Source: an uncultured Clostridia bacterium (GTDB taxonomy: Bacteria > Bacillota > Clostridia > TANB77 > CAG-508). From it: a stretch of 42,889 bases of DNA. The position numbers were made by a program, and so were the translations under genes. Numbering within the stretch: position 1 is the first letter of the stretch; each line of letters begins with the position of its first letter. The notes under the pieces are model-generated. The model had not been told where the DNA came from. It was given only the letters and a program-made list of their open reading frames with translations, and made no database searches. The stretch spans positions 1 through 42,889 of the forward strand of contig CANQCW010000004.1 of the NCBI GenBank assembly GCA_947591055.1, given 5' to 3'. Positions 18,172-42,703 of this stretch are shown here, piece after piece.

Positions 18172-20115
18172 GTGAAGAAAAAGACTTTATTATTAACTAC
18201 ACTTGCTGGTTCTATGCTTATTGCTGGAATGGCAATGCCTACTACAAAGGCTGTTACTGATACTACAGCTATTGTTAATGAAGATAAAGAGATCGTTGCT
18301 GTTGAATTAGCTAACTCTGAAACTCAACTTTCTAAAGAACAATTAAAAACATTAATTGCCAAAGCTTATGAAGGCAAAAATTTAAAACCAGAAATTACTG
18401 TAGAAGGAGATGTTAAAACTGGTTCTACTGTAAAAGTTGGTGAAAACAAAACACTTACAGTTGTTGTTTACGGTGATGTTAATGGTGATGGTGCTGTTAA
18501 CTCAAAAGACGCTGTAGCTATTGCTAAACACTCAACAGGAGCAGAAACTCTTGAAGGTGCAGCTCTAATAGCTGCTGGTTTAGATAACAACACAGATAAT
18601 ATCAACTCTAAAGACGCTGTAAAAGTTGCTAAATTTTCAACAGGAGCACTTGAAGAATCTTTAGTTAAATCTGGTGTTAAAATTGAAGAAAAAATTAATC
18701 CAGAACAAGAAGTTCAGGAACACAAATGCACATACACACAAGGAGTATATGATAATATAGCAAAATCACATACATGGAAATGTACAGAATGTGGTGAATC
18801 TGGAGTAGAACCTTGTACATTTAGTGAATGGACATCAACAGATGGCAAAACTGCAAAAAGAACATGTCTATTATGTGGTGGTGTAGATACAGCAACCACA
18901 TTATCAGCTGCGTTAAGTGATGGAAGTACTAAAGAACTTACTGTAGATACAATAGATACTTCTGAAAATGAATTAACTATACCAAGAGGAACAACTGTAA
19001 CTGTAAATGAAGAAATAACAACAGCTAGTAATGATGTAACAGTAAATGGTACATTAGTTTTAAAAACAAAACAAGAAAATCTTAAATTAAAAGGTACAGG
19101 AACTGTTATCTATGCACCAGAAGTAGAAACACCAGAAGAATTTGCAGAACAATTTCCAAATGCCGAAGGTATATTAGGAGGAATACAAGCTGCAGATAAA
19201 GAAGCTGCAAAAGGCTTAAAATATGAAATAATAGTACCAAGCCTAAGTGAGGTACAAACAATAACAGAAGATACTCAAATAGAATTAGAAGCAGGATGGA
19301 ATTTAACAGTAGATTTAGGAAACAACATATTAACATCTAAAAACACAAATAATAACTTAATAAAAAATAGCGGAAATCTTACAATAAAAAATGGAACCTT
19401 GACAACTGCTGAGAAAAATAATAATCCTGTAATTAATGATCAAGGAAGTAGACTAACTTTAGAAAATGTTGATGTTAAAGGTAATAAAGGTATAAGAACA
19501 AATGGAAACTTAGGAGTTATTGGTGGAAAAATTGTATCAAAGAGTTATGATAATAATTCATATGCATTGGCAGTATTAACTGATGCAGAAACTCGTAGTA
19601 CTGCTGTGTTAAATAATGTAGATATTGTTGCACGAAACATCGGAGCATATATTGGAGGAGCTAATCATAGCTTAATTATGTACGGTGGAACGATAACCAC
19701 AAAAGGCTCAGAGAACAAAGATTATGCTTTAGCATCATACGCTACAGATGCAATTTTGAGCTTAGAAGGTACAAAAATACAATCTGACGACTTTGGTGTT
19801 TATTTACAAAATGGAGCAGAATCGGGTAAACCAGGTGATGTAGGAAACTTAGCTGAACTAAACAATGTCGAATTAACATCGGAAAAAGCAAGCATATGGG
19901 TAGCAGGTCAAAAAGATAGAGTAGAAGTTACAGGTGGTACAATAACAAGTAATGAAGAAGTAGTACTAAGAATATCTAGTAAAGACTGTGGACATAGCAT
20001 ATTAAAGGACTGTACTTTATCTGGTCACCCAACTGTGACATTTAATAGTAACATAACAGAGGAACAAAAGAATCAACTTGTTACTTTGACTGATGTAACA
20101 GAAAACAAAAAATAA
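18172..20115 (+). CDS. Expressed variable surface protein: constant region (signal peptide + dockerin, aa 1-~181) fused to a 470-aa variable cassette
   Basis: AGGAGG RBS and signal peptide. Duplicated GDVNGDGAVNSKDA / GLDNNTDNINSKDA dockerin repeats. Crossover motif at aa 178-181 (EQEV), then Cys/His pairs and beta-helix-like repeats. Confidence 0.88.
   Translation: MKKKTLLLTTLAGSMLIAGMAMPTTKAVTDTTAIVNEDKEIVAVELANSETQLSKEQLKTLIAKAYEGKNLKPEITVEGDVKTGSTVKVGENKTLTVVVYGDVNGDGAVNSKDAVAIAKHSTGAETLEGAALIAAGLDNNTDNINSKDAVKVAKFSTGALEESLVKSGVKIEEKINPEQEVQEHKCTYTQGVYDNIAKSHTWKCTECGESGVEPCTFSEWTSTDGKTAKRTCLLCGGVDTATTLSAALSDGSTKELTVDTIDTSENELTIPRGTTVTVNEEITTASNDVTVNGTLVLKTKQENLKLKGTGTVIYAPEVETPEEFAEQFPNAEGILGGIQAADKEAAKGLKYEIIVPSLSEVQTITEDTQIELEAGWNLTVDLGNNILTSKNTNNNLIKNSGNLTIKNGTLTTAEKNNNPVINDQGSRLTLENVDVKGNKGIRTNGNLGVIGGKIVSKSYDNNSYALAVLTDAETRSTAVLNNVDIVARNIGAYIGGANHSLIMYGGTITTKGSENKDYALASYATDAILSLEGTKIQSDDFGVYLQNGAESGKPGDVGNLAELNNVELTSEKASIWVAGQKDRVEVTGGTITSNEEVVLRISSKDCGHSILKDCTLSGHPTVTFNSNITEEQKNQLVTLTDVTENKK
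18702..18715 (+). repeat. Putative recombination site X (expression site)
   Basis: AGAACAAGAAGTTC, in frame as E-Q-E-V. Confidence 0.85.
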
Positions 20116-20175
20116 AAATTAATAATAAGTATTAGTGAACTTAATTGGATAATTAAAATTTATTCATTAAGAAAA

Positions 20176-20210
20176 CAAAAATATCGTACAAAAACTGTAC
20201 GATATTTTTG
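20176..20210. terminator. Bidirectional terminator between expressed cassette and cassette A
   Basis: CAAAAATATCGTACA-AAAAC-TGTACGATATTTTTG. Confidence 0.85.
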
Positions 20211-20247
20211 TATTTGATAACTTTTTAATAAACTATATAATCAAATT

Positions 20248-23200
20248 TTATTTGCTTATATCTTCAACTTTTATTGTTAGGTAATTTATCTCATTTGTTT
20301 CTTTATTTTTGAATCCAATTGTCATCTCTGGTAATTCAGCTTCCCACCAAATTAAAATTTCTGTATCTTTTAAATCAAGTGATGAACTTGCAGTTACATC
20401 ATCCTCTGTAACTTGGTAGCCAGAAACAGGACCATCTGTATAAAGTTTGTCTCTTGAAATTCCTGTATCAACAATTAAAGCAAAATATGTTCTATCATTT
20501 TTAGAAGCATTATCTTCTGAAGTATATGCTTTAGTTTTAGTCTTATCAATTTTTACCGTTATAGTGTTTGTTTTTGGATCTACTTCTACAGAATTTATAG
20601 CATCCATATTTTTAGCAAATTCAGTATTATGATCGTCTTCTTTCATTATTTCTTTATTAAGTGCTTCTTTCACTTCGCTAGTTTCTTCAACGCTTAATGT
20701 TTCAGATTTTTGATTTAAAGTAACAATTGATTTTTTATTTAGAGTAAACTCAATTTCGTCTGAGTTAGTTTTAACACTATAAGAAGCTTCATTAGCTACA
20801 GAAGGTACTAGATAATATCCAAACCAATCAAGAAGTTTTGGAGTACTTGTTAATTTTTCACCAACAACAGTATTTCCTGTATAAGTTTTGTCAGTTATCA
20901 AAGTAACAGTATATTTATCACTCATACTTGTGTCACCAACTACAAGGCTTTTGAATACTGCTTTAGATATATCAACTTTACCAGATTTTACTTCTAAGCC
21001 AGTAATTTCTTGAGCATTAGTAAATACTCTTACAGCATTAGATTTATTAGCTGAGATTTCTAATCCATCTTGATTTGTTCCAACAAATTCAACATCAATT
21101 TGTTTTTCAACTTTAGATGAATCAATTGATAATTTATTGTTAGAACCAGTAAATGTAAATTTATCACCTTCTACTATAAATGGATTTATTTTTGATTCTT
21201 GTTTTATTTTCACTCCATTGATAGTAGTTGTTGTTCCAGTAGTAACTTCTACATTAACTGGGCTTGATGTATCTAAAGTTAAATCCATATTATCTTTACT
21301 GATGATTACTTTTTCAACTGATAATTCAGATAAATCAAATTTTTTTGCAGTATCTACTGTAATTTCGTTTAATTCACCAGTTACAGTTGTTGTATAATTA
21401 GCTTCACCAGTTATATTGACTTTTGCAGTTTTTGCAACTTTTGTTAAATCATATGTTGTATCTTTCTTATCATCATCTGTTAATGTTAAAGCTGTTATTT
21501 TATCATTTACTGATATTTTGTCATTATTGTCCATTTGATCTAAAACACTTATTATATTTAATACTTCTGGATAAATATCAGAAGAATATTCAGTCATTTT
21601 TTCACCTACATATAATGTGTTATCTTTATATGTAACTTGATTTGCCCCAAGTTTTGGTAAAACTGGAGAATCTTTTTCCACTTTTACATATGTGGCATTA
21701 GTAAATGCAAGTGCTGAAATTGGTGTTGTAACTTTAGCTTCATTAGAATAATATTTTGAACCATTAACTTCAGTTACAATCATAAATTTATATTCTTTTC
21801 CTGGATTTAAATTTTCTGCTACATTATATGGTAATGATGTAATTGCAGTACTATCCTCCACATAATCTTTATCTGATTCCACATAGTATAATTTATAATT
21901 TACTAAACTTGCTCTATTTTTACTTAAAATATCAAATAAATTATTAGAATCTAATAAAGTTCCTTTTAATTGTACTTTTCCATCTTCAAGTACTGCTCTT
22001 AAATCTTCAATTCTTGCTCCTTGATAATATTTCAAATTAGCTTGTTTGTCGCTACTACCACTAGCTTTCTTTATTTCATCTGAAGATTTATTTGCCATTA
22101 AAACGTCATCTTTAGCATTTGCAGTTACTTTAAATGAATATGTTCCTGCACCATATTTTTCTACTATAGATGATATATCAAAATTTGAAGTTTCAGTAGT
22201 TGTTGCTGATGATACAACATTATTATATTCTTTGTTTGTCTTAGTTGAATCATATTTTAAAATTTCAACTGTATAATCTTTTACTTTTGCTACATCTCCT
22301 GTAGGTGTCCATGATATTTTCTTTTCATTTTTGTCTAAAGTAATTGTTATTCCAGTAAGTACTGGTGATGTTGTTATTGTAACGCCTGTAGAAGAAACAT
22401 CAGTATAATCTTCGTTATCTGCAACTGCTATAACTGTCATATTGAAAGTTCCAGCATCTTGTTCCTTTAATATATCAAAGAAATCAACTTCTTTAGTTTC
22501 TCCTTTATTTACAACTGTTTCATAAACTATTTTATTAGTACTGTCTTTTAATATAACTCTATATTCAACAAATCCTTCAGTTTCTTCATTAAAATCCCAT
22601 TTATATGTAGCTTCTTTACTTGTCTCTTTTTCTACAGTTACTTTGCCTTCCATTGCATTAGCACCTTTTTTAGCAACCTTAATAGCTACAACATCTTTAG
22701 AATCTGTTCCAGAAGCAGTTTTTGCTGCTAAATATACAACACAAGCATCGTCACCTATATCAGTTGGAATAGGAATACTTGTAGTTTCATTAAAACTATT
22801 AATTTTGCTTGTATTACTTGCTGAATTACCAATTATATCAGCAACAGTTGGAGCAGGTTCTCCTACTTTCTTAACTAAGTAATATACTGTATCATTAGTA
22901 TTGGTTGATTTTAAATTTGTAATACTAGCTTGTGGCTTTTTCTTCTTATCAGCAGTACGATTAGCTTTTTCATATGTTACAACTGGAGCGTTTGCATATT
23001 TAGTTGCCGCTGTACCATTAGCTACTGTTGAAACATTACCTTCACTATCTCTTACTAATGCTTTAAGAGTTAATGTTCCTTCTTCTAATGAGCTTAAATC
23101 ACCACTAATTGTTTCATTAATATTTTTTGTTGTTAATTCTTTTGTCAAAGTTAAAGTATTTGGTTCGTCAGCAGAATCTGTAATATTAACTTCAAGAATT

Positions 23201-23592
23201 ACTGGAAGAATATTTGTATTTCCACCATTGAAAGTTACATCCATATTAACATTTTTAACATTTGAGGAATTAATTTCATTATCATTATTTCCAGATCCAG
23301 CTACAACTTTAAGTGAAGTAGGAGCAACTAATTTTTTAAATACAAAAGTTTTAGATTCTTCAAAAGAATTACTTTCATCAGTTATAAGTAATACATTTTC
23401 TTTATTTTCTTTTAGCTGTGAAATGCCATTAATTTTATAAATATTTTTATTAGATGAATCTTGAGTACCATCTACTAGAATATCATTTAATTTAAATCTA
23501 ATATCTTGTACTTCTTTATTTAATTTTACTGAGATATTTCCGCTAGCTTCAACTTCAAAAGAAACAATTTCAACATCTAGAACTTCTTGGTC
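20248..23592 (-). CDS. Silent cassette A (1114 aa from DQEV), Ig/FN3-like beta-rich surface protein C-terminus
   Basis: Frame runs through the site (DQEVLD). Only 7 codons upstream, no RBS or signal peptide. FN3-like W / Y.V patterns. Confidence 0.85.
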   Translation of the reverse strand, partial: DQEVLDVEIVSFEVEASGNISVKLNKEVQDIRFKLNDILVDGTQDSSNKNIYKINGISQLKENKENVLLITDESNSFEESKTFVFKKLVAPTSLKVVAGSGNNDNEINSSNVKNVNMDVTFNGGNTNILPVILEVNITDSADEPNTLTLTKELTTKNINETISGDLSSLEEGTLTLKALVRDSEGNVSTVANGTAATKYANAPVVTYEKANRTADKKKKPQASITNLKSTNTNDTVYYLVKKVGEPAPTVADIIGNSASNTSKINSFNETTSIPIPTDIGDDACVVYLAAKTASGTDSKDVVAIKVAKKGANAMEGKVTVEKETSKEATYKWDFNEETEGFVEYRVILKDSTNKIVYETVVNKGETKEVDFFDILKEQDAGTFNMTVIAVADNEDYTDVSSTGVTITTSPVLTGITITLDKNEKKISWTPTGDVAKVKDYTVEILKYDSTKTNKEYNNVVSSATTTETSNFDISSIVEKYGAGTYSFKVTANAKDDVLMANKSSDEIKKASGSSDKQANLKYYQGARIEDLRAVLEDGKVQLKGTLLDSNNLFDILSKNRASLVNYKLYYVESDKDYVEDSTAITSLPYNVAENLNPGKEYKFMIVTEVNGSKYYSNEAKVTTPISALAFTNATYVKVEKDSPVLPKLGANQVTYKDNTLYVGEKMTEYSSDIYPEVLNIISVLDQMDNNDKISVNDKITALTLTDDDKKDTTYDLTKVAKTAKVNITGEANYTTTVTGELNEITVDTAKKFDLSELSVEKVIISKDNMDLTLDTSSPVNVEVTTGTTTTINGVKIKQESKINPFIVEGDKFTFTGSNNKLSIDSSKVEKQIDVEFVGTNQDGLEISANKSNAVRVFTNAQEITGLEVKSGKVDISKAVFKSLVVGDTSMSDKYTVTLITDKTYTGNTVVGEKLTSTPKLLDWFGYYLVPSVANEASYSVKTNSDEIEFTLNKKSIVTLNQKSETLSVEETSEVKEALNKEIMKEDDHNTEFAKNMDAINSVEVDPKTNTITVKIDKTKTKAYTSEDNASKNDRTYFALIVDTGISRDKLYTDGPVSGYQVTEDDVTASSSLDLKDTEILIWWEAELPEMTIGFKNKETNEINYLTIKVEDISK

Positions 23593-23624
23593 TAGCAAAA
23601 ACGTTGAAAGCATTGAAAATACTG
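23580..23624 (-). repeat. Putative recombination site A with extended 44-bp arm
   Basis: CAGTATTTTCAATGCTTTCAACGTTTTTGCTAGACCAAGAAGTT(C). Confidence 0.88.
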
Positions 23625-23791
23625 AAAAATTGCAATTAATAAAATTAAAAGAAGAATTTAAGTGAAATAAAACTAAAGATGGGAATAAAGTAAATTCTAT
23701 CTTGTTAAAATATATAGATATGAAAATAAAAAGCTGTAAATCTGCACGTTACAGTATCTACAGCACTAGCAATACAATGTTTAAATGTTAA

Positions 23792-25127
23792 TTATTTTTC
23801 CTTTAAATATCTTTTTAAAAGGAAAGTTAAAAAATATGGGAAAGTATAAAATTTGCCATTAAAACCTATATTTTTATATCCTAGCTTTATTCCATACTTA
23901 ATATCTTTATACATTTTATTGTCTATTAAATTATTTAGAGAAATAGTCGCACCATCAATCGCTTTTACTTCAACTGGAATCAAAGAATCTTTATCTCTAA
24001 TAAAAAAGTCCATTTCAATAGTACCCTTTTCATTTTTATAGAAATATAAGTTATAGCCCTCTTTTACAAGAGTATCTGCAACAATATTTTCATAAATGGC
24101 ACCTTTATAAGTATTAAAATTTTTATTATTTCTTAAATCATCTTGTGCTTCTTCATCTAGTGAACCAATTAATAAACCTGTATCACTAAAATATATTCTA
24201 TAATTATTAGGATTAAAATTTCCTCCAAGAGGAAGTTCTGGTTGTTCTAAACAGTAACAAATATTAATAATTCCACTATCTTTCAGCCAATCTATTGTTC
24301 CAATATATTCTCTGCTTCTTGCACCATGTTCTATCTTTGAAATTTGAAACTTTTTGTTTTCATTTCCTAAAAATACAGGAATTCTACGATACACATTAAG
24401 GACTTTAGCATGATCCAAGCCGACCAGCGTACTTAGTTATATCCTCTTCATAATCAAGAAGAATTTGCTTTTGCATTTTTAATGTTCCACTATAATTTTT
24501 ATTTTTTACAAATGAATTAACAATTGCAGGCATTCCACCTATTACCATATATTCTTTAAAATTATCAAACATAACAGAAAGCTCTACATCAGAAAAAGGA
24601 ATTAAGTTTTTCATATGATTATATAGATTTTCTATTTGCTCTTCTTTATATCCTTTAGCCCAAAGAAATTCTTCAAAGTCCATTGAATACATTTCATAGT
24701 CTTCTTTATTTCCAACGCTATTAGATTCAATTTCTTTATAGTTAATTCCCATAAGAGAACCTGAACAGATTACATCATATCTTCCATCTTGATTAAATGA
24801 TTTAAGAGATGTTGCACAATTAATACAATTTTGTAACTCGTCAAAAAATATTAATGTATTTCCTGGTATAAATTCAAAATTTGGATTTTTTAAAGAGATA
24901 TTTTTAATTATAGTATCTACATCAAAACCATCATCAAAAATATCCCTATATTGCTTTTGCAGTACAAAGTTTATTTCAATTACACTTTTATAATTATTTT
25001 TTGCAAAATATCTAATTGATTCTGTTTTTCCTATTTGACGTGCTCCTTTTACTATCAAAGGCTTTTTCTGTTGACTATTTTTCCATTCTATTAAATAATT
25101 ATCAATTTTTCTTTTTAAAAGTTCCAC
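23792..25127 (-). pseudogene. AAA_14 + DUF4143-type ATPase split by a +1 frameshift near 24422
   Basis: GARQIGKT Walker A and FFDELQ in the 5' ORF; DTGLL, ENIV, EMDF, PVEVK in the 3' ORF. Removing one C gives KYAGGLDHAKV. Confidence 0.8.
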
Positions 25128-25414
25128 AATTTTTCACCATCCTATATATATATTATATCACAAAATTCCTGCTATATGCAATACATTTTTTCACAAAATT
25201 CCATTTCTATATATGTTTTTCACTTTTTGCAATTTACTGCCAAAAGTATTGTTTTATATTGCAAACTTCTTTTAAAAAAACACTGAAAGTATTGAAAATA
25301 CTAGATAATGCGTGATAAATATATTAATTTTTATAAAAAAATAATTAAATAAATAGCACATTTTTGCTTTTTATATTATAATTAAATTATATTTAAAATC
25401 ATGGAGGTAGTGTT

Positions 25415-25777
25415 ATGCCTAGTAAACTAAAAAAAATTTTAGATGAATATACTGAAGGTTTATCTAATATTCTAGACAATAAAATAGAAAAAGTAATTTT
25501 ATATGGTTCTTATGCTCGAGGAGAGCAAAGTTCTAAAGAAGAAATTAGCGATATTGATATAATGATACTAGTAAAGTCTAATTCTAGTGAGATTAAAGAT
25601 ATAGAAAAAATAGTATTAGATTATAGTTATAATCTAGATTTAAAATATAATATTGTATTATCTCCTATGGTAGAAAATATTGATGTTTTTAATAAAAGAA
25701 CTAAATATATGTCTTTTTATAAAAATGTAATGAATGAGGGAGTTATATTATCTAAAGGAATATGTAAAGGAAAGTGA
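25415..25777 (+). CDS. Minimal nucleotidyltransferase (MNT), no HEPN partner; 3' end runs into an inverted mazF fragment
   Basis: LYGSYARG..SDIDIMIL; GGAGGT RBS. Confidence 0.85.
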   Translation: MPSKLKKILDEYTEGLSNILDNKIEKVILYGSYARGEQSSKEEISDIDIMILVKSNSSEIKDIEKIVLDYSYNLDLKYNIVLSPMVENIDVFNKRTKYMSFYKNVMNEGVILSKGICKGK

Positions 25778-25862
25778 TTATCTGTATTTGTAATAGGACA
25801 AACAATTGATAAATTTGTTTTTTCATTAAATATATTATTGCTTATTACAACAGCTAATCTAT
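25741..25862 (-). pseudogene. mazF: Internal fragment of a MazF/PemK toxin gene
   Basis: Translates YRLAVVISNNIFNEKTNLSIVCPITNTDNHFPLHIPLDNIT (MazF R.AVVISN...VCPIT core); no start codon; abuts site M. Confidence 0.8.
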
Positions 25863-25906
25863 AACTTCTTGGTCTAGCAAAAACGTTGAAAACCTTGAAA
25901 ATAGTG
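25862..25906 (-). repeat. Putative recombination site M (null cassette)
   Basis: 41/44 identical to site A; cassette frame reads DQEVID-stop. Confidence 0.85.
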
Positions 25907-26036
25907 AATAAATCATAAATTATTTGTTATAATATAAATAAAACATTTATATTATCTGTATCAATAATTTTATTGACATTGTAAATAAATTATGGTAAAA
26001 TACATATAATAAAAGAAAGAAAGGAAGTGTGTTATT

Positions 26037-26303
26037 ATGGCTCAAACAAATATTAATATAAGAATGGATGAAGATTTAAAAAAACAATTTGATAAATTTT
26101 GCTCTGATATAGGTATGACAATGACAACAGCTATTTGTGTATTTGCAAAAAAAGCTGTTAGAGAACAAAAAATACCTTTTGAGATTACAGCTGAAGACCC
26201 TTTTTATAGTTCTGCCAATATGAAAAGGTTACAAAAAGCAATTCAAGATGTAGAAGATGGAAAACTTACAGTTCATGATTTAATAGAGGTAGAAGATGAA
26301 TAA
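26037..26303 (+). CDS. relB: RelB/DinJ family antitoxin
   Basis: INIRMDEDLK..IGMTMTTA..REQKIPF; promoter TTGACA(25973)-17-TAAAAT. Confidence 0.9.
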   Translation: MAQTNINIRMDEDLKKQFDKFCSDIGMTMTTAICVFAKKAVREQKIPFEITAEDPFYSSANMKRLQKAIQDVEDGKLTVHDLIEVEDE

Positions 26304-26559
26304 AGCATGGCAAGATGAAGCGTGGGAAGATTATTTGTATTGGCAGACTCAAGATAAAAAAATACTAAAAAAAATAAACCAGTTATTAAAAGATATAGAT
26401 AGAAATGCTTATGATGGAATAGGAAAGCCAGAAGCATTATCTGGAAATCTTTCTGGATACTGGAGTAGAAAAATTGATGATAAAAATAGAATTGTATATA
26501 AAGTACAAAATAATCAAATTATAATTATTCAATGTGGTTCACATTATAGAGATAAATAA
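26296..26559 (+). CDS. yoeB: Txe/YoeB family toxin
   Basis: AWEDYLYWQ, GIGKPEAL, WSRKI..RIVY, HY; overlaps the antitoxin stop. Confidence 0.92.
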   Translation: MNKAWQDEAWEDYLYWQTQDKKILKKINQLLKDIDRNAYDGIGKPEALSGNLSGYWSRKIDDKNRIVYKVQNNQIIIIQCGSHYRDK

Positions 26560-26651
26560 AATTGTAATTGCTAATCATATAATAATACTAAAAATATAAT
26601 AATAAATATTGACATTTATACTATGTATATACAATGAGAGGAGTTATTTAT

Positions 26652-26891
26652 ATGACTACTACTATTCAAAAATGGGGAAAAAGCCAAGGTGTTAGAATTC
26701 CTAAAAATATATTAGATTCTGTTAATTGGACAGAATCGGAACAGATTACAATTGTAGTTGAAAATGGTAAAATAATTATGGAAAAAACAAAATTAAAAAG
26801 AAAAAATATAAAAGAATTATTTGAAAATTATGATGGAAAATATGAACCAGTAAAAATAGATTGGGGAAATCCGAAAGGGAAAGAAATATGA
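26652..26891 (+). CDS. mazE: AbrB/MazE family antitoxin
   Basis: IQKWGKSQGVRIPK, DWG.PKGKE; GAGGAG RBS. Confidence 0.88.
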   Translation: MTTTIQKWGKSQGVRIPKNILDSVNWTESEQITIVVENGKIIMEKTKLKRKNIKELFENYDGKYEPVKIDWGNPKGKEI

Positions 26892-27009
26892 TGCGAACAT
26901 ATTAAAGCATTAGAATTAAATAGTAGAACTTACCAAATATAGAACATTTGCCAGAAGATAATTGGCACAAGTTATAGACATTATTTATTCTGAAATAGAA
27001 AAAATATAA
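26892..27009 (+). pseudogene. mazF: Degraded C-terminal third of mazF, two frameshifts
   Basis: CEHIKALELNSRTYQ / IEHLPED / LAQVIDIIYSEIEKI* in shifting frames directly after mazE. Confidence 0.75.
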
Positions 27010-27116
27010 TTAATTAACAAAGAAAATTTAGATTTAAATATAATTTTTTATTCCTGATAATAAAATTCTCTTAAGCAATACATTAATTTGTACTTACTTA
27101 AGAGATTCATTTAATT

Positions 27117-33981: not shown

Positions 33982-34245
33982 ATGGCTCAAACTTTAATTA
34001 ACTTTAGAATTGATGAAAATATAAAAAAAGAAATGGAACAACTTTGCAATGAGTTAGGTATAACAATGACAACAGCCTTCAATATTTTTGCTAAAAAAAT
34101 GATACGTGAAAAAAGAATTCCCTTTGATGTGTCTATTGATTCATTTTATTTAGAAAATAATATAAAATACTTAGAGCAAGTAATAGCTGATATCGAATCT
34201 GGAAAATCAAAATTAGAAGAGCACAAATTAATTGAGGAGGATTAA
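33982..34245 (+). CDS. relB: RelB/DinJ family antitoxin (second copy)
   Basis: INFRIDENIK..LGITMTTAF..REKRIPF; promoter TTGACA(33930)-17-TAAAAT. Confidence 0.9.
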   Translation: MAQTLINFRIDENIKKEMEQLCNELGITMTTAFNIFAKKMIREKRIPFDVSIDSFYLENNIKYLEQVIADIESGKSKLEEHKLIEED

Positions 34246-34246
34246 T

Positions 34247-34504
34247 ATGAAGCTATTATGGGAAGAAAGAGCATGGGAAGATTATTTATATTGGCAACAA
34301 CAAGACAAAAAAACATTAAAAAAAATCAATATACTTTTAAAAGATATCCAGCGAGATTGTTATAGTGGAATAGGAAAACCGGAACCTCTAAGAGAAAACC
34401 TAAAAGGTTGGTGGAGCAGAAGAATAGACAATGAAAATAGAATTGTCTACTGCCAAAAAGGAGAAAATGTAATTATTGCTGCATGTAGAGGTCATTATGA
34501 ATAA
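34247..34504 (+). CDS. yoeB: Txe/YoeB family toxin (second copy)
   Basis: AWEDYLYWQ, GIGKPEPL, WSRRID, RGHY; GAGGAGG RBS. Confidence 0.92.
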   Translation: MKLLWEERAWEDYLYWQQQDKKTLKKINILLKDIQRDCYSGIGKPEPLRENLKGWWSRRIDNENRIVYCQKGENVIIAACRGHYE

Positions 34505-34729
34505 TATTAAATTATATAAACAGTTGCATAAATTTTTAAAGAAACTTCTGCAACTGTTTTAATTTCTTCTTATAGCAAATGTTAATTTTTTTGTTATTTC
34601 AAACAAAACTGGCATTTATATTATAATCATATTAATCTAATCATAAAATCATATTAAAAGTATATTCAAAATCATGTCACATTCTTTCGAGAATCGATTA
34701 TGAGACATTTTATTGTGTTAATAGTATAA

Positions 34730-35690
34730 TTAATCACTTTTTAATTTCCAATTTATCATAGGATGAAATTTTATTTTTTCTATAATTTCATTATCATCAA
34801 ATAATAATTCTGGTTCATATATTCCTTTGTGAAATTTATCATAAAATTCTTGAATATTATCATCAATTATTAAAATATCTTTTAAATAGTCTCTTACTGC
34901 TTGTTTCATTTCATCTACATTACTTTTTTTGGGATTTCTATCTTTTAATGTTGGTAGTAATTTTGTTTTTATTTCTTGTTTGTCTATTTTTTCTATTTTA
35001 TCAAGACTCATATCTTCAAATTTATAGTTATTAATGGCTATATATTCTAACATAAAACATTGCTTTAATAATTTTTTTTCTTCTTTATCAAATAACTGAT
35101 ATTTACTTAATGTATACACATCAAATAGATCCCTTGCTGTAGTTCTGCTTAATAATGCACAAATTTTTGCAGCATAAATTTCTATGGGATGAATACAATT
35201 AATTGCTAATTGTTTGTCTTCAAATACATCTGTAGATATTTTTAATTTTTTAGTTTTTAAAATATGTACTCTATTCATATAATTTATTTCTATCTTTATG
35301 TTGTCTATATTACCTGTTATATCTTCATATTCTGCTACAATAGAATCTAACGCATACACATTTTTAGATTTTTCTGTATTAATTCTATATGAATTAGCAG
35401 TTAAATACTGAACTAATAGATTATGTATATCTTTTCGATTTTTTATCATTTCATCTTTTGATAAATTTTCAGCCAAATCTAAGTCAATATCAACTGATAA
35501 TCTTGGAAAGTTAAATACTGCTGTATTTATAGCTGTTCCACCTTTTAAAGCTAATATGTTTTTTAACTTCTTATCATTATTAATCCATTCTAAAATTCTA
35601 AGCAATCTTTCTACTTTTTCTAATGTCGATTTTATAAAACCTGTTTTTTTTTGCAATGTCTTCTATGTATTTTTTATATTCTCCTACCAA
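34730..35690 (-). pseudogene. abiEii: AbiEii nucleotidyltransferase toxin (type IV TA), apparently +1 frameshifted in an A9 tract
   Basis: LKGGTAIN, RLSVDID, K..ALL.R...RDLFD motifs. GGGAGG RBS and TTG 35690 are in a different frame from the main body, joined across A9 at 35644-35652. Confidence 0.75.
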
Positions 35691-36436
35691 TACAATGTCC
35701 TCCCTTTAGTTAAAAATATCTCTGGAACTATCAAGTTCCATTCTTTAACATATTTGCTTTTCATTTTTTTTGTTTCTTCATTAAAATATAACTTCTTTTC
35801 ACCTTTTTTTTCTCTACATTTTTCTATTATTGTATTATTTACACCATAATGTTCATTTAATAATTCAATAAAAAAACCAACTTTTAAATATAGTTTATTA
35901 GAATTGTATCCTTTTAAATATTCTAATATTTTATCTCCATCTAGTTGCCCAAATAATTCTAAACACATTATTAATTCTTCACTACCTCCTGCTAAATCTG
36001 TTCTATTTATGCAATCAATAAAAGTTCTTTCTTTATCAGTTAATCTTACTTTGTTCTTTTCTGTTATTCCAAAATCATATTTACTATCTATACATTTATA
36101 TGATATTCCTTCGAAGTCAAAATCTTTAAATCTTTTTTTAGTCGAGACATAAACTTGGTAAAATACTTGATTTTTTACTCCATAATATTCTAATGCAGAA
36201 TGATATGATATATATGCATCATCTTTTATTTTTGATCCTATCATATATTGATCTGCAATTGTATTTTTAAATTCAATATCACATACAACATATAAATTAT
36301 GTTTTACTCTTTTTATAAGATTAAAGTCTAATAGGTCGTTTATTAAGCCTCTAGCTGAATTTATATTTCCTGTTAATTTATATACATCTTCAGAATTAAA
36401 GACTTTTAAATTTAAAATTTTTTCATATCTTATCAT
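35684..36436 (-). CDS. abiEi: AbiEi family antitoxin / transcriptional regulator
   Basis: YISYHSALEYYG, TDKERTFID; promoter TTGACA(36508)-17-TAAAAT. Confidence 0.9.
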   Translation of the reverse strand: MIRYEKILNLKVFNSEDVYKLTGNINSARGLINDLLDFNLIKRVKHNLYVVCDIEFKNTIADQYMIGSKIKDDAYISYHSALEYYGVKNQVFYQVYVSTKKRFKDFDFEGISYKCIDSKYDFGITEKNKVRLTDKERTFIDCINRTDLAGGSEELIMCLELFGQLDGDKILEYLKGYNSNKLYLKVGFFIELLNEHYGVNNTIIEKCREKKGEKKLYFNEETKKMKSKYVKEWNLIVPEIFLTKGRTLYW

Positions 36437-36773
36437 ATTATTTCACACCTTCTTTGAAAATATAGTTTATCTTTAATAAATTTTAACATGTCTATTTTAT
36501 ATTGTCAATATTTTTTCACGCTTTTTGCTCTAATATTATGTTTTTTTGTAAATTATTAGTGCAAAATTCGTGACTTGCTATAAATAGTTAGTGTCGCTAT
36601 ACACATAAAATTTTAGCGTTTTGATGAAAATTTAACAAAATATAAATTAATATACAATTTCATATTCTTAATATTTTAATAAACTTAATATACATTATTT
36701 ATAAAAAAAATTTGTCAAATCCATTAATATCAAGAAAAATATGAATTAATATTGGAATAAATTACTAAGAATC

Positions 36774-36787
36774 AGACCAAGAAGTTC
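36774..36787 (+). repeat. Putative recombination site D
   Basis: AGACCAAGAAGTTC(AGGACC); in-frame TAA three codons upstream. Confidence 0.88.
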
Positions 36788-39702
36788 AGGACCATAATTA
36801 CACAATGACAGTTAATGGCAATAATATAATAAATAATGAAAACATAGCAAAAAGTATAATAACAGTAGATTTAGAAAAATCCTCTGATACAGATACTAAA
36901 GGCTTGAAACTTTCATATTATAAAGATGATGATGGAGATGGAAAATTAAATACTAAAGCTACAACAGTAAAAGTTGATACAATAGCTAAATACACAACAC
37001 ATGCTGAAATAAAAGATAATAATGGTACAGTAGAATTTAATTTTGAACAATTACCAGAAGGTAAAAATGTTATCCAATTATTAGATAGTACAGGAAAAGT
37101 ACTTACAGAAACAATAGTTACTAAAGATACATTAACAATACCTGTAGCTGTTGAGGTTACAACAAAACGTATAGATACATCAAAAGCATCTATGTCTTTC
37201 AAAGCTAAAGAAGGTAGCGATATTGTAAAAATGTATTATGCTGTACTTCCAGTAAGTAATGATAATAGTACAATTAGATATGTTGATATAACAAATGCAA
37301 TAAAGAAAATATCAAATGGAGATTCTGCAGATAATAGTATTGTAGCTGCTGCAGAAGTAGAAGTAAAAGATAATAAATTTGAGGGCACAATAGCTACAAA
37401 TTTAGTTAATAATACAGCTTATAGAGTTATATATGTAGTAGAAAATTCTCTAGGAAATAGATTTTATGGAAAAGATTCGACTAAAGGAACAAATGTAGTA
37501 GCTAGCAAACCTGTAACAACAAAAGCAACAATAGCTAAAGACGTTTATGGAACAAATGCAGAAAAAGAAGTTAAAAGTATTACACTTCCAGATTTAGAAA
37601 ATAATGGACCTGCAGATGCTAACTTTGAATGGACATTATCAAAAACAGAAACAGAAGATGTTTCAGCAAAAACATTCAAAGTAGAAGTTCTTGATGAAAA
37701 AGGAAAAGTTTTAAATGAAGTTGAAATCACAGGTACAAATACAGCTTCTTTAAATGAATTAGGTATAACAACTCCAGGAACATATAAAATAAAAGTTACA
37801 GTAAAAGGAAAAGATAATGGTAATACATCTGCTTCTGAATCAGTAGAATCAAAAACAATAACAATTGATTCATATGAAGCTGTAAAAAATATTGAATTTG
37901 TTAATGAAGATAATGAGAAAACATTAACATGGGAAAGTAATTATACTATAATCAATGAAGAAGGCGAAGGAAATATTGCTGGATATATAGTAGATTTATA
38001 TGAATATGATACAAAAACAGATGAATATAAGAAATTAGTATCAGCATCAAATCTATCTTCAAAAGAAAAGAAATTAGATATATCAGCATATATTACAGCA
38101 AATAAACTTTATAAAGCAGAAGTTAGAGTTGAAGCTAATCCTAACCAATCTGCTAAATTAACAGCTGAAGTTGGAGAATCAAAAGAATTTTTCGTATTAG
38201 CAGGTACATCTATATCAGTATCTAAAGACGAAAATAAAAAAGATAAAATAACAACAGATTCTGTTACATTAAAAGCTACTAAGGCTGTTGTAGGAAATAA
38301 AGAAGTATCATACGATTTAAGAGTATGGAAGAAAAATACTAATACAGGAGATTTTGATGGTGCTAGATATGCTGAAGTAACAAATAAATATATGTCAAAT
38401 GTTCAATTAAGCGAAACTAGTGAAGTTGAAGTTACTGGACTAGAAGAAGGAGCAACATATAGATTTGAATTAATAGTTAAAGTTGATAGTGCAGAAGCTT
38501 CTAGAACAACAGGTGATATTACATTATTAAAATTACCTATAGAGATAAAAGGATTAGTAGTATCTGAAACACCAGGAGAAGGAAAAATAGCAAAAACAAC
38601 TGATGGAATAAGTATAGATGACGTAGAAGTAAAATCTACAGATTTTGTAAAATATGCAAATAGTGCAGAACTAACTGTAGTATCAAGCTTGTTACAAAAT
38701 ACACCATCTCTAGTTTATGGAGATAAGATAACTTTAGACGAAGATAAACTAACAGTTGAATTACAAGCACAAGCATCAACTTCATCTGTAGCTGCAAGAG
38801 ATTTTGGAAACAAATTAGAAGGAATGACAGTTGAATTAAAAGGAAATACTTCTGATAAAATAATTAAAACAACAGCTAATACTAAAGGACCTAAAGAAAT
38901 TATATTATCTGAAGGAAGTAACTTTGATATATCAGGAGTTACTGCTGAAAAAATAACATTAAAGAATAATGTTAGCGTTAAAACTGGAATAAATAAAGTA
39001 ACAGTTGCTGATGGTGCTACAGTTACAATAAATGGAGTTATAGTTACAGCTAAAAATACAGAACTTACATTAAAATCTGATGCACAAGGTACTAAAAACT
39101 TTACAGTTGATCCAACAGGAAGTGGAGTTAACGCTGATATAACATTTGAAAATACTACAACTGATGCTGTTACAATAAATTTTGTTGGAGAAAATGATTT
39201 AAGTGGAAGACAACAAGGTTCTATCACAATTAGATCTGCTTCAGGAAAAGTAACATTATCATCTCAAAATTTCAATATTGAAAGTAAAATAGATGTTGTT
39301 GTTGAAAAAGGTGAAGTTGATATTTCTAGCAAATTCTTAACAGGTGATAAGACTGTAAGTGTAAAATCTGCTGATTCTAAAAATACTGCTAAAGTAACTA
39401 TAGAAGGACCAGAAGTTCCAACAGAGATAGCCAATGTTAAAATTGATAAGTATACATTAATTGATAGAAGCGAAAGTAGTTTAAAATCATTCTTTAATTC
39501 TTCAAGTAACCAAAGTAAAAATATAATAGATAAAACAGTTTCTTTATCTAACACAAAAGCAGTTAAAGAATACTTCGATAGTTTTAAAGAATTCTTCGAT
39601 AAAGGTGCTACATTATCTAAAGCTGCTAATTCAACAACTGTAACAATTACTTTTACAAAAGCAGTTGATGGAGCTATAGATATGTCTAACTTGACAAAAT
39701 AA
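36775..39702 (+). CDS. Silent cassette D (975 aa), FN3-like, paralog of C and E
   Basis: DQEVQDHNYTMTVNGNNII; no RBS or signal peptide; shares GATVTINGV, QQGSITI and KGEVD with C. Confidence 0.88.
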   Translation, partial: DQEVQDHNYTMTVNGNNIINNENIAKSIITVDLEKSSDTDTKGLKLSYYKDDDGDGKLNTKATTVKVDTIAKYTTHAEIKDNNGTVEFNFEQLPEGKNVIQLLDSTGKVLTETIVTKDTLTIPVAVEVTTKRIDTSKASMSFKAKEGSDIVKMYYAVLPVSNDNSTIRYVDITNAIKKISNGDSADNSIVAAAEVEVKDNKFEGTIATNLVNNTAYRVIYVVENSLGNRFYGKDSTKGTNVVASKPVTTKATIAKDVYGTNAEKEVKSITLPDLENNGPADANFEWTLSKTETEDVSAKTFKVEVLDEKGKVLNEVEITGTNTASLNELGITTPGTYKIKVTVKGKDNGNTSASESVESKTITIDSYEAVKNIEFVNEDNEKTLTWESNYTIINEEGEGNIAGYIVDLYEYDTKTDEYKKLVSASNLSSKEKKLDISAYITANKLYKAEVRVEANPNQSAKLTAEVGESKEFFVLAGTSISVSKDENKKDKITTDSVTLKATKAVVGNKEVSYDLRVWKKNTNTGDFDGARYAEVTNKYMSNVQLSETSEVEVTGLEEGATYRFELIVKVDSAEASRTTGDITLLKLPIEIKGLVVSETPGEGKIAKTTDGISIDDVEVKSTDFVKYANSAELTVVSSLLQNTPSLVYGDKITLDEDKLTVELQAQASTSSVAARDFGNKLEGMTVELKGNTSDKIIKTTANTKGPKEIILSEGSNFDISGVTAEKITLKNNVSVKTGINKVTVADGATVTINGVIVTAKNTELTLKSDAQGTKNFTVDPTGSGVNADITFENTTTDAVTINFVGENDLSGRQQGSITIRSASGKVTLSSQNFNIESKIDVVVEKGEVDISSKFLTGDKTVSVKSADSKNTAKVTIEGPEVPTEIANVKIDKYTLIDRSESSLKSFFNSSSNQSKNIIDKTVSLSNTKAVKEYFDSFKEFFDKGATLSKAANSTTVTITFTKAVDGAIDMSNLTK

Positions 39703-39710
39703 TTTAATTT

Positions 39711-39835
39711 AAAATAAGGTTTGAGTTATTAATTTAGCTCAAATCTTATTTTTATTTATATTTATACAATTAATAAATTAAAATATAATAAATAATAGCT
39801 TAACACTTGTAATCAAGTATTAAGCTATATTTTTT
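39711..39835. terminator. Two hairpins between convergent cassettes D and E
   Basis: Stem-loops at 39711-39752 and 39795-39828, both flanked by A/T runs. Confidence 0.7.
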
Positions 39836-39876: not shown

Positions 39877-42702
39877 TTATTTTAATCCTTCAATATTAAC
39901 TGAAACTTGATTTCCTCTGTCATCCACTGTTTTATTTAATGAAATTGTTACTATGTTTCCTTTAGCTTCTAAAATCTTAGCACCATATTTTGTAGTTCCA
40001 CCATAAGTTGTTCCATATAATGTCGTAAATTTAGATAAATATGCATTTAATTTAGCAAGATTTTCTGCTTTTTTGTCTGGATCAACATCATATAATCCTG
40101 TAACTGCTTTGCTAAGTACTGAATTAGCTTTACTAATGTCAGAAATATTATATTCCTTTATATCTATTGCAGTTTTTATTTCAAATGGAGTTATATCAGC
40201 AGTTTTAACTTTTATTGTTTTAGCTCCAGTTGTAGTATTTGTTATTGTAACATTTTGTGCTCCTGATAAGTTACTTCCACTTAAATCAACTGTACCATCT
40301 GTAACATTAACTGTTATATCAGCTGAAAATGCTAATGAATTAGCTGTAACTGTAACATTTCCTTTTGCAGTAATATCTAATTTTCCAGATTGTGCATTTG
40401 TATCTGTTCCATCTCCATTAACAATTATATTTAAACCATTAGTATCTTCACTATTTAATATAATATTATTACTTGGTGTTGCAGAAATGGTAACGTTTGA
40501 GCTAACATCTATTGTAGTATCTGTTGAAACATTGATTTTAATTTTTTTATCCATAAAGTTAACTGGAGAAGCTCCTTCATTAGCCATAATAACAACTTTT
40601 GTTGCACCCTTAATTGTTGAACCTGCATTAATTTTTATTTCTTTTTGACTTGTAAGTCCTGTAATATCTAATGATTCATTATTTCCAGAAATTATTATAT
40701 TTCCTCCAACATTTCCTGTGATTCTTTGAGAGAAATTTCCTCCTTCTAAGTAAAGATCTCTATTTCCAATTGTCGTTCCTAATGCTCTTACTCTAGATCC
40801 TGTGTCTAATGCACAAAGTTTAACAGTTACAACATCTGATGTATATGTTAATATATCACCTACAACAAGATTATCAACTATATTTTTAATTTCTGCTAAT
40901 TCAGCTGGGTATTCTGCTGTCTTATATTCTTTTCCATCTACACTTATTCCATTAGTTGTTTTAGCAATTTCTCCTACTTTAGTTGTTACATTGTCTGCTA
41001 CAACTGTTTTATTTTCAATAGTTGGCATTGCTAATCTTGTATCAAACTCTGCACTATATCCAGAAACACCTTCAATACCATTTACTGTTGCATATAATCT
41101 AATTACATATTTTGTACCTGGTTGTAATCCTTTAACATCAAATGTTCCATCTGCTTTTACAGTAACATCTTGAGTTAATTTTGATACTTCTTTATATTTT
41201 CCATCAAATAATCCATCTGGATCATTTGTATTATATAAGAATACTTTTACTCTATATGTTGGGGTCATGCCTGAAACTTCACGACTAGTTATTTTAAATG
41301 TAGCTGAATCTGACCCAGCTATGCCTTCTATTGCTGGCGTATAGACTTTAAAGAATTCCTTTGATTTAACTTCATCTGAATCTACTACAGATAATTTATC
41401 GCCTGTTGCTTTTGTTGTAACATAAGCTTTATATAATACATTATCTGTCATTGAAGATATACCTTCAATTTTTGTATCTTCTACTGGAGATCCACTAGTT
41501 AATTGTACTTTATTTGTATAATCTTTATTTGATATATCATATCCATATAAATCTACATTGTATCCCTTAACATCTTCTGCTGGTGATGTACTAGCATCCC
41601 ATGTTAATACAGAGTTATTATATTTATCTACATCTAATTTTATATTGTCTGCATTAACTGCATCTAATTTAGAAACTGTTGTTTCATTTGATTTAAATGT
41701 AGCTGATGGTAATTTATTACCAGATCCTTCTCCGTATACTTCAAAGTAATATGTTCCTGCTGTAAGAGGAGAAGATACAAATGTATCAAGAGTTGTACTT
41801 AAAACTGCGATTCCTGTTTTTTCTTCTATAGCTTTTCCATCTCTATATAATACAACTGTAAATTTATTTGATCCTATTGTTTCTCCTTCAGCTAATTTCC
41901 ATGTAAGTTGAACATCTGATAATTTGTTAACTGTAGCTACATCAGTAATTTTTGCATCTACTATAGTTGGAGCTAAAGTTGTAGCACCATCTTTTTCCCA
42001 TGGAATAAGAGCCTTTTCTGAAAGAACTGAAGTTGATACATTTCCATATTCATCTTCTAATATAAAATATACATCAAATGTTTTATCTTCATAAGTTGTT
42101 TCATCTGTTAATAAAATTGGTGCTTCTACTACTTTGTTATTAGTAATTTGAATATATTTTGCCTCTTTCAAATCTCCAAATTCTGATACATTAGAAGGTG
42201 CACTTGAACTACTTGTAGCAGCACTATTAGCTTTTTTTAAGTAATAAGCTTTTACTATATTATCTTCACTTTTAACACTAAAAGATACAGTTCCTGTTGA
42301 AGATGCTGGACGATTTCCTTTTAATCCAACAAGTTTTGTATCTTTCATTGCATTTGTGCGAGCATCTAATTTAAATTCAGCCAATGTACCAACTTTGGTA
42401 TTACCAGACATTTCTACTAATCTAAATTTATATACTTTATCTTGCGTAATTACACGAGATAAATTCATTTTAGGTAAATCAATTTTAGATGTATTTGCTG
42501 GTATTGTTATAGTACTTGGACTAGTTGAAATTACACTACCTAATGTTCCATCATCGTTTACCAAATATATTTTAGCAAATTTAGATGTGTCTAATTCACT
42601 TTTTATACGTAGACTTGTTTCTACAGCTCCAACATTCTTATTATTTACATATTTGCCAACAGGAGTAACTGTAAAGTTACCATCCCCTGGAACTTCTTGT
42701 TC
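39877..42702 (-). CDS. Silent cassette E (941 aa), FN3-like
   Basis: Frame open for 46 codons upstream of the track start (EQEVPGDGNFTVTPVG...); TGA immediately before the site. Confidence 0.88.
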   Translation of the reverse strand, partial: EQEVPGDGNFTVTPVGKYVNNKNVGAVETSLRIKSELDTSKFAKIYLVNDDGTLGSVISTSPSTITIPANTSKIDLPKMNLSRVITQDKVYKFRLVEMSGNTKVGTLAEFKLDARTNAMKDTKLVGLKGNRPASSTGTVSFSVKSEDNIVKAYYLKKANSAATSSSSAPSNVSEFGDLKEAKYIQITNNKVVEAPILLTDETTYEDKTFDVYFILEDEYGNVSTSVLSEKALIPWEKDGATTLAPTIVDAKITDVATVNKLSDVQLTWKLAEGETIGSNKFTVVLYRDGKAIEEKTGIAVLSTTLDTFVSSPLTAGTYYFEVYGEGSGNKLPSATFKSNETTVSKLDAVNADNIKLDVDKYNNSVLTWDASTSPAEDVKGYNVDLYGYDISNKDYTNKVQLTSGSPVEDTKIEGISSMTDNVLYKAYVTTKATGDKLSVVDSDEVKSKEFFKVYTPAIEGIAGSDSATFKITSREVSGMTPTYRVKVFLYNTNDPDGLFDGKYKEVSKLTQDVTVKADGTFDVKGLQPGTKYVIRLYATVNGIEGVSGYSAEFDTRLAMPTIENKTVVADNVTTKVGEIAKTTNGISVDGKEYKTAEYPAELAEIKNIVDNLVVGDILTYTSDVVTVKLCALDTGSRVRALGTTIGNRDLYLEGGNFSQRITGNVGGNIIISGNNESLDITGLTSQKEIKINAGSTIKGATKVVIMANEGASPVNFMDKKIKINVSTDTTIDVSSNVTISATPSNNIILNSEDTNGLNIIVNGDGTDTNAQSGKLDITAKGNVTVTANSLAFSADITVNVTDGTVDLSGSNLSGAQNVTITNTTTGAKTIKVKTADITPFEIKTAIDIKEYNISDISKANSVLSKAVTGLYDVDPDKKAENLAKLNAYLSKFTTLYGTTYGGTTKYGAKILEAKGNIVTISLNKTVDDRGNQVSVNIEGLK

Positions 42703-42703
42703 T
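42690..42703 (-). repeat. Putative recombination site E
   Basis: AGAACAAGAAGTTC, identical to the 14-mer of expression site X, in inverted orientation. Confidence 0.88.

Follow-up and report, generated by a model that had tools for sequence, protein, structure and literature searches.

The dockerin gene and its silent cassettes

The window analysed here is an entire contig (C4, 42,889 nt) of the 1.25-Mb, 100-contig metagenome-assembled genome (MAG) of an uncultured Clostridia bacterium (26-28% G+C; completeness 69%). It carries a locus in which a single gene for a secreted protein with a dockerin domain is accompanied by five long reading frames that lack beginnings of their own, and in which a 13-bp site, AGAMCAAGAAGTT, lies inside the gene, at the start of each of the five frames and once more on its own (Table 1). 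An earlier note on this DNA had proposed that site-specific inversion swaps alternative C-termini onto the one secreted protein, and the present analysis followed up that proposal.

The expressed gene had been singled out in that note as the only large gene with both a ribosome-binding site (RBS) and a signal peptide, with one copy of the site at codons 178-181. This proved correct: the RBS is well placed before the GTG start, the N-terminus is signal-peptide-like, residues 100-153 match a type I dockerin (Dockerin_1, PF00404; 24.1 bits against a cut-off of 22.9), and among the cassette family at the locus only the gene at 18172-20115 unites RBS, signal peptide and dockerin. Scans for promoters told nothing, the DNA being AT-rich: 85 were counted where 87.2 were expected, and 93 where 86.2 were.

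The gene upstream of it, here called the anchor gene, encodes a protein without a Pfam match. Its AlphaFold2 model has a mean pLDDT (predicted local confidence) of 56.8, with 65-86 in the blocks of the beta domain, and in a Foldseek comparison of this model with the PDB the ten best rows were all cohesin or cohesin-dockerin entries, although at weak scores (E 4e-3 to 1.6e-2; target-normalised TM 0.31-0.41); the model thus hints weakly at a cohesin-like protein. The tail of the protein, [YF][DP]QTG-TM-KRK (TM, transmembrane stretch), is kept in 4/4 aligned homologues and reads as a putative sortase-type sorting signal. A sortase-like open reading frame (ORF), identified by sequence reading alone, lies beside the anchor homologues of the related genomes G010 and G015 and of the locus L214. 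The pairing of an anchor gene with a gene bearing the same N-terminal part, or handle, recurs in G006, G010, G015 and L214, and in G006 the anchor gene stands directly upstream of dockerin genes. The anchor protein is therefore likely to be a wall-anchored socket, putatively holding the dockerin protein.

Behind site 1 the constant part of the expressed gene passes into cassette A, and the five silent cassettes, B to F, follow further along the window. All five are stop-free from the site onwards in the D/E-Q-E-V frame, which is the frame of the expressed gene, as the earlier note had read them. In this region a stop is expected every ~13 codons and the longest stop-free run in 100 shuffles was 159 codons, so that, with a log10 P(no stop) of -33 to -39, the silent cassettes must be real, maintained coding sequence. 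The distance from the site to a stop upstream of it is 0 codons in cassettes D and F, 3 in E and 13 in C; the TGA directly before the sites at 33800 and 42703 and the TAA three codons before 36774 had been reported correctly. No RBS was seen before any silent cassette, B and C having only an ATG or GTG without a purine-rich RBS, and none of the five has a signal peptide. Because of these upstream stops and the missing RBS, the silent cassettes are not translatable by themselves in their present state.

The cassettes form three tail-to-tail pairs (A/B, C/D and E/F) of 4.9, 6.1 and 5.9 kb, each with inverted sites at its borders and with hairpin terminators in its middle, an arrangement that had been described before and that the hairpin scan bore out. 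Their contents differ widely: D, E and F are mutually 25-29% identical, B is related to D in a 237-column stretch only, and A and C have no similarity to the other cassettes. Leads to the nature of the cargos are weak fn3 matches and beta-helix-like repeats, and a search of the ESM Atlas with cassette D gave FN3-type leads only, all below 0.9; the body of cassette C, judged by eye, probably consists of helical repeats. The cargos look like adhesin- or receptor-type surface modules. Site 3, which the earlier note had not singled out as an orphan, would, if joined to the constant part, encode a dockerin-only product of 183 residues, i.e., a possible seventh state that is blank or truncated.

Table 1. 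Features of the dockerin locus, in order of position in the window
Feature	Position	Strand	Remarks
Anchor gene	17355-18020	+	Signal peptide, ~110-residue beta domain, NEV-repeat linker, C-terminal YDQTG + hydrophobic stretch + KRK
Expressed gene	18172-20115	+	647 residues; GTG start; RBS AAGGAGG 7-8 bases before start
Constant part	18172-18701	+	Signal peptide, small beta module, type I dockerin, linker ending ...EEKINP
Site 1 (AGAACAAGAAGTT)	18702-18714	+	Codons 178-181 (E-Q-E-V) of expressed gene
Cassette A, in expression site	18715-20115	+	466 residues after site; Cys-rich start, then beta-helix-like repeats
Terminator A/B	20175-20211		Palindromic, 17 pairs
Cassette B, silent	20248-23580	-	1114 codons from site
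Site 2 (AGACCAAGAAGTT)	23581-23593	-	Opens cassette B
Spacer I1	23594-25862		AAA_14/DUF4143 ATPase in two overlapping frames; nucleotidyltransferase
Site 3, orphan	25863-25875	-	Followed only by I-D-stop (site and stub 25854-25875)
Spacer I2	25876-27669		RelB/YoeB pair, MazE-like gene, nucleotidyltransferase
Site 4	27670-27682	+	Opens cassette C
Cassette C, silent	27683-30670	+	999 codons from site; E/K/A-rich
Terminator C/D	30691-30726		14 pairs
Cassette D, silent	30743-33787	-	1018 codons from site; TGA directly before site
Site 5	33788-33800	-	Opens cassette D
Spacer I3	33801-36773		RelB/YoeB pair; AbiEii toxin gene
Site 6	36774-36786	+	Opens cassette E
Cassette E, silent	36787-39702	+	975 codons from site; TAA three codons before site
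Two terminator hairpins E/F	39711-39752, 39795-39828		Hairpin scan
Cassette F, silent	39877-42690	-	941 codons from site; TGA directly before site
Site 7 (AGAACAAGAAGTT)	42691-42703	-	Opens cassette F
Gene start cut by contig end	42876-42889	+	GGAGG, 7 nt, ATG GTA GAA AGA AA (M-V-E-R-)

The 13-bp site

The seven copies of the site lie where the earlier note had placed them. All are exact matches, against an expectation of 0.01 from dinucleotide shuffles, and 0 of 100 shuffles reached seven; the site is found on no other contig of its own assembly. Besides site 1 there are two further sites on the + strand and four on the - strand, and these inverted repeats overlap coding sequences, as in gene-altering programmed inversion. 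All 13 nucleotides are the same in the seven copies, including the third positions of CAA-GAA-GTT, and the neighbouring bases differ. Since synonymous positions are identical while the cassettes are at most 29% identical or unrelated, the site is conserved as DNA rather than as protein, which points to selection at the DNA level.

The site can be read as imperfect inverted arms, nnAGAMC and GTTCnnG, which agree at 4-7 of 9 positions and enclose an asymmetric centre. The 7-bp CAAGAAG lies within the invariant block, and the dyad is centred on a single base, not between two. Tyrosine recombinases exchange strands across an overlap of 6-8 bp that must be identical between the partners and whose asymmetry sets the direction of the event, and the sites of serine invertases are even-centred; the present site would fit a tyrosine-type 7-bp core better than a serine invertase site. 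A length of 13 bp is too short for RecA-dependent exchange or homologous pairing, which implies a site-specific enzyme.

Relatives of the handle protein

The constant part (181 residues) was searched against 5.8 billion proteins, and an exhaustive search was made against 1.84 billion representatives. The N-terminus of P0001 is 73% identical, with the same ...EEKINPEQEV junction, and its body is 47% identical to cassette D over 1001 columns. P0002 is 60% identical in the N-terminus, which ends in ...IEPEQEV, and its body aligns with cassette B from the first residue, DQEV, onwards (38% over 907 columns). P0013 combines a homologous N-terminus with an A-like body, and the exhaustive search also returned P0012 and P0032 (B-like) as well as P0060 and P0137 (D/E/F-like). 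By these alignments, A-, B- and D-like bodies occur elsewhere as the C-terminal part of the same handle, joined at the same point. These fused forms in relatives, together with the DNA-level conservation of the site, thus back the layout of one expression site with headless cassettes. A short tail, ...[IV]xGLK, ends cassettes D and F, a gene of the sister species G004 (L107) and P0001, and cassette C ends in ...SGLKFA; the shared tail may be a C-terminal signal or an assembly motif.

The relatives gave less at the DNA level. With the constant N-terminus the best identity was 38-39% among genome contigs and 44% among the matches listed for metagenome contigs, the latter covering the dockerin only, and the N-terminus of P0046 was not found in the genome contigs. 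No 12-mer occurred at least four times in both orientations near the junction of relatives in the genome contigs, nor was there a convincing 13-mer repeat at the junction in 11 related loci. In L214, which encodes P0032, the gene lies 2.3 kb from the contig end and no repeated site was seen; the AbiE-like pair of that locus is not orthologous to that of the window. Such loci are likely to be under-reported, because in several assemblies the family genes are found next to a contig end or on contigs of about gene size. As a separate observation, many genomes of the genus encode N-terminal-dockerin proteins of ~715-760 residues, with matches interrupted by one in-frame TAA or TGA (G009:C8, G018:C45, G030:C16 and, in the present genome, C9:8038-8385).

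The family also bears on the possibility that nothing moves at this locus, i.e., that the frames are separate genes or decapitated paralogues and that the 13-mer is a conserved linker motif (PEQEV/LPEE-like). A linker [LI]xPE[EQ]x[VI] does occur at the same domain border in many family members, and the close relatives G006 and G065 carry arrays of complete paralogues. Several features of the window speak against this: stops stand directly before the motif in D and F, the silent frames have no RBS, start or signal peptide, the identity reaches synonymous positions though the proteins are at most 29% identical, and no gene follows the orphan site. For five genes to be cut off independently at one and the same base, a site-specific process would itself be needed. 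An absence of any rearrangement is therefore regarded as very improbable.

Proposed mechanism

The locus is probably a chromosomal multiple-inversion system (shufflon) that is active or was so very recently. In this model there would be a single expression site, comprising promoter, RBS, signal peptide, small module and type I dockerin and ending in the 13-bp recombination site, and five promoterless, start-less cassettes and a 2-codon stub, each opening with the same site. A site-specific recombinase would exchange strands within the invariant, asymmetric core CAAGAAG; the 7-bp core between imperfect inverted arms makes the tyrosine type the most likely one. One inversion between the + site in the gene and any of the - sites would place cassette B, D, F or the stub behind the constant part, and cassettes C and E would need two inversions; the site orientations agree with the earlier count of one or two steps for each cassette. 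The product would keep the junction P-E/D-Q-E-V, be secreted and dock on the cohesin-like, sortase-anchored protein encoded upstream, so that a single socket would present any one of six widely differing cargos or else a blank.

Evidence against inversion and possible signs of rearrangement

Several results weigh against this model. The exact site is without clustered conservation in any related species searched: none of 60 related genomes has a cluster of it, the maximum being four copies on four different contigs (a reversed-pattern control in the same genomes gave up to three copies). In G006, tandem complete genes share 2.6 kb of 5' DNA that is 100% identical and then fall to ~35%, which yields the same pattern of proteins without inversion. 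The corresponding locus of the sister species G004 (XerC-like protein 97% identical) is ambiguous. No recombinase domain was found among the 29 ORFs of the window scanned against Pfam, and the recombinases of the genome are all on other contigs. Finally, when Logan contigs, which drop rare variants, were aligned to the window, those of the source sample (X1) crossed sites 2, 4 and 6 in the reference order, a point of little weight with contigs of this kind, and none of the 15 joints listed, out of 44, lay at a site.

The proteins P0096 and P0098 turned out to be the products of the tandem genes of G006, with an identical prefix of 189 residues, 36% identity thereafter and an anchor gene for each; pairs with identical prefixes, P0046/P0047 included, are therefore not evidence for inversion. 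At that place (G006:C40, L222) a tandem duplication of 5.47 kb relates 200-2700 to 5670-8170, and its identical 5' 2.6 kb contains a sortase-like fragment (recognised by eye), the anchor gene and the handle, which suggests a very recent duplication or an ongoing conversion of the 5' half only. In G004, a 6.5-kb contig carries the handle with a D/E-like body, and on the opposite strand a B-like body, at the 5' end of which the final 22 codons of the handle recur as an inverted repeat; this repeat is perfect over at least 66 nt, where the contig end interrupts it. P0004 is the G004 handle fused to a B-like body, and it would be either the flipped state or a second complete gene.

The 15 listed joints of X1 were "skips" without exception, the shorter side having 20-26 letters, and they were taken as chance or foreign matches. 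In another sample of the same study (X4), a contig 99.7% identical over 307 nt (1 difference) ends its match at 36774, the first base of site 6, and continues with 69 further letters unlike the window; another X4 contig has its first base at 23580, which is 1 nt into cassette B as counted from site 2. These breaks have the pattern expected from a rearranged, near-identical strain and are suggestive, as two pieces among many. A contig of sample X5 that ends at 18698, at a depth of 4, was put down to probable low cover. Present-day flipping is thus read from the intact cassettes and sites rather than from an observed event. The summed contig depth of X1 over 18000-18744 was ~11, with a value of 11 for 18000-18666, against 45-122 elsewhere, and an A/G variant at 18744 lies on an X1 contig of depth 7; this low depth at the constant region, which was not used as evidence, may reflect a mixture of strains, a filter or heterogeneity at site 1.

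The Logan contigs showed no reciprocal junction, and none would be expected if gene conversion, known from pilE/pilS, copied silent cassettes non-reciprocally into the expression site and used the 13-mer as its upstream homology. Silent headless cassettes beside one expression site would fit conversion as well. Against it stand the length of the site, which at 13 bp is too short for homologous pairing, the lack of a common homology block in the 3' ends and terminators of the cassettes, and the strict pairing of inverted sites around tail-to-tail cassettes, a feature that inversion needs and conversion does not. Gene conversion is accordingly judged highly unlikely, and inversion by a site-specific enzyme remains the preferred explanation. 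The proposal of the earlier note that such inversion swaps the C-termini is supported in part, by the layout, by the DNA-level conservation of the site and by the fused relatives; no recombinase was found in the window, and no inversion junction among the joints listed for the Logan contigs.

The search for a recombinase

In the genome as a whole, Phage_integrase has four matches, on contigs C15, C23, C1 and C33. The tyrosine recombinases carry the NCBIfam names XerD, XerC-like and generic integrase; in a genus-wide survey of 44 genomes the XerC-like gene is core to the genus (43/44). The tyrosine-type genes of the genome include a phage-type integrase, truncated on its 5' side where contig C1 ends, and one broken integrase fragment. 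PF00239 matched no small serine invertase in the genome as assembled; its matches were confined to two large serine recombinases, in frames of 592 and 516 residues on contigs C84 and C95. One large serine recombinase (C84 1-1779; G030:C14; G014:C10) is 80-90% identical across three species and present in 17/44 genomes; in G014 the ORFs behind it look, by eye, Bro-N-like and replication-like, which suggests the integrase of a mobile element.

The contig ends 186 nt after site 7 and 14 nt into a gene that starts 173 nt past that site. The genes rci, gin and hin sit beside their invertible segments, and the cut-off gene occupies the equivalent place. It could be continued by the serine recombinase of C84, which lacks ~11 N-terminal residues, or by the integrase of C1. 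Orthologues of the C84 recombinase start with MDKEKK... and MKEEKK..., some gene start is carried by 23 of the 200 contig ends, and no sequence overlap or upstream homology was found that links C84, C1 or other contig ends to the window.

These results bear on the further alternative that the locus is a fossil shufflon, built by site-specific inversion and then frozen with cassette A expressed when the recombinase was lost. A recombinase is missing from the window, the 69%-complete genome has none that is specific to the locus, and the contigs of the source sample show only the reference arrangement, at three sites. Yet none of the five silent cassettes, of 941-1114 codons, is interrupted and the site has been kept whole at 7/7 places, so any loss of the recombinase must have been very recent; moreover, the assembly is incomplete and the contig breaks off at the start of a gene close to the last site. 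A fossil is hence considered unlikely, and a shufflon that is active or recently so is preferred to it.

A fuller version of the preferred reading would see here an active "plug-and-display" switch: a seven-site shufflon with six cargos of 470-1114 residues that are hardly or not at all related, or an empty plug, on one handle, in which a sortase-anchored cohesin socket changes the displayed adhesin or receptor, the toxin-antitoxin/Abi genes act as locks against deletion between direct sites, and spacer I1 was possibly captured by the same recombinase in the manner of an integron. The whole of this is put forward tentatively, as something a little short of an even chance.

Spacers and neighbouring features

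The spacers between the cassette pairs hold genes unrelated to the cassettes. Direct repeats of 55 nt (23575-23629 and 25857-25911, 91% identical), within which sites 2 and 3 lie, stand on either side of spacer I1, and one may speculate that this spacer entered by recombination at a site. Its AAA_14 and DUF4143 halves (23792-25127), usually parts of a single ATPase, are encoded in two frames with 14 nt in common, and this would reflect either a frameshifted gene or a sequencing error. Inverted repeats of 47 nt (81%), with sites 3 and 4 at their ends, enclose spacer I2; at 27512-27596, between the start of the nucleotidyltransferase gene of this spacer and site 4, the 23-nt unit TTTTAATAATTTTAGTCGACACT is repeated 3.7 times and could be an operator array or an accessory site. 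In spacer I3, an ORF of 250 residues beside the AbiEii gene has no Pfam match and is read as AbiEi-like from its position only. That the toxin-antitoxin/Abi modules guard against deletion between direct sites is a speculation.

Elsewhere in the window, a ToxN toxin gene (9590-10081, - strand; PF13958, E 7e-40) has directly upstream of it a 36-nt tandem repeat of 3.1 copies (10128-10240), the layout of a type III ToxIN system with a repeat RNA as antitoxin; Rfam gave no match at the repeat stretch. An intergenic, AT-rich 13-nt unit is present in 19 copies at 4400-4644 (82% matches). A tandem array with a 36-nt unit (3.7 copies, 94% matches) lies at 1-134, and since its k-mers are common to the start of the window and the end of contig C56, the latter is probably the left neighbour of the window.

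Comparison with known systems

Cohesin-dockerin pairs are known as the fixed assembly joints of cellulosomes and amylosomes. If the proposed mechanism is true, the joint would here be a socket of universal use, with programmed DNA inversion exchanging the cargo, and shufflon-type antigenic or adhesive variation would extend to uncultured, small-genome gut Clostridia, with a concrete locus for phase variation, escape from phages that use the receptor, and host adhesion. Three close species (XerC-like proteins 92-97% identical) would then be organised in three ways, with a shufflon of seven sites in one, an inverted pair in another and a tandem array in the third, and offer a good case for studying the origins of shufflons. 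The arrays of G006:C40 and G065 have the same anchor gene and N-terminal dockerin handle with alternative bodies of ~850 residues, but each copy is complete, with its own anchor, RBS and signal peptide, and all are on one strand, so that no rearrangement is needed and both could be expressed at once.

The R64/IncI shufflon (Rci, sfx, pilV) has seven sites, as many as here, and like the present locus it has several short repeats at which the C-terminus of one surface protein is swapped onto a constant N-terminus. The cassettes here are 10-20 times longer than the R64 segments and are, to our knowledge, the largest and most dissimilar known for such a system. In architecture, R64 sfx consists of 19-bp repeats with a 7-bp core and one conserved arm; of the site here, 13 bp are invariant, the 7-bp centre is asymmetric and the arms are weakly conserved. 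The present locus is, moreover, chromosomal and from a Gram-positive-type MAG, has toxin-antitoxin genes in its spacers, and has no Rci-like gene adjacent to it, the Phage_integrase matches of the genome being on other contigs. The earlier claim that the geometry is that of the R64 pilV shufflon accordingly holds as a functional likeness, and it fails in that the target, for which Pfam gives Dockerin_1 alone, is not PilV and that no Rci was found. Shufflon regions break short-read assemblies (PMC5430464), and the contig break near the last site is a further likeness.

In Mu Gin, P1 Cin and p15B Min, the last with more than one pair of crossover sites, inversion joins alternative C-terminal parts of a tail fibre to its constant N-terminal part. 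These systems, like Hin, have a small serine invertase at the segment, in contrast to the genome here, and the single-base dyad centre would again suit a tyrosine-type core better. A systematic survey of programmed inversion found tail-fibre genes to be enriched among the predicted targets and hsdS to be the commonest class of gene-altering inversion (PMC9881135). The hsdS genes of type I restriction-modification systems (S. pneumoniae, PsrA) share with the present locus the programmed inversion within a coding sequence; they differ in that the target-recognition half-domains of a cytoplasmic subunit are exchanged at longer repeats, rather than whole extracellular cargos at a 13-bp site. HsdS, tail fibres, PilV, SusC, PglX and others are listed in the survey, the main text of which does not name dockerin, although its supplements may hold more (PMC9881135). 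In the library of papers searched, none has dockerin together with shufflon or inverton, and dockerin is absent from the papers listed in a search that combined it with DNA inversion and phase variation.

The closest parallel is the vsa locus of M. pulmonis, in which site-specific inversion places the promoter, the RBS and the first 714 nt before a silent 3' part (PMC2268961), as against 543 nt of 5' coding sequence in the one expression site here. In both loci the other family members are without 5' ends, the sites lie inside the coding region and inverted with respect to the silent genes, and unrelated genes stand between the cassettes (hsd in vsa, toxin-antitoxin/Abi genes here). The Vsa proteins are lipoproteins of a wall-less bacterium, whereas the product here would be a Sec-type secreted dockerin protein of a Clostridia MAG, with cassettes of ~1000 codons that are unrelated or at most 29% identical; and the tyrosine recombinase HvsR is encoded beside the vsa locus, whereas none was found in the window. 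The vrs site of vsa has no known likeness to the site here. By target, by site and, so far, by enzyme, the locus is not a member of the vsa, R64 or Min/Gin classes. In function, by analogy, it would stand closest to vsa of M. pulmonis and also near R64 pilV and the Min/Gin tail-fibre systems; the architecture is clear and unusual, but the principle of inversion is already known from these.

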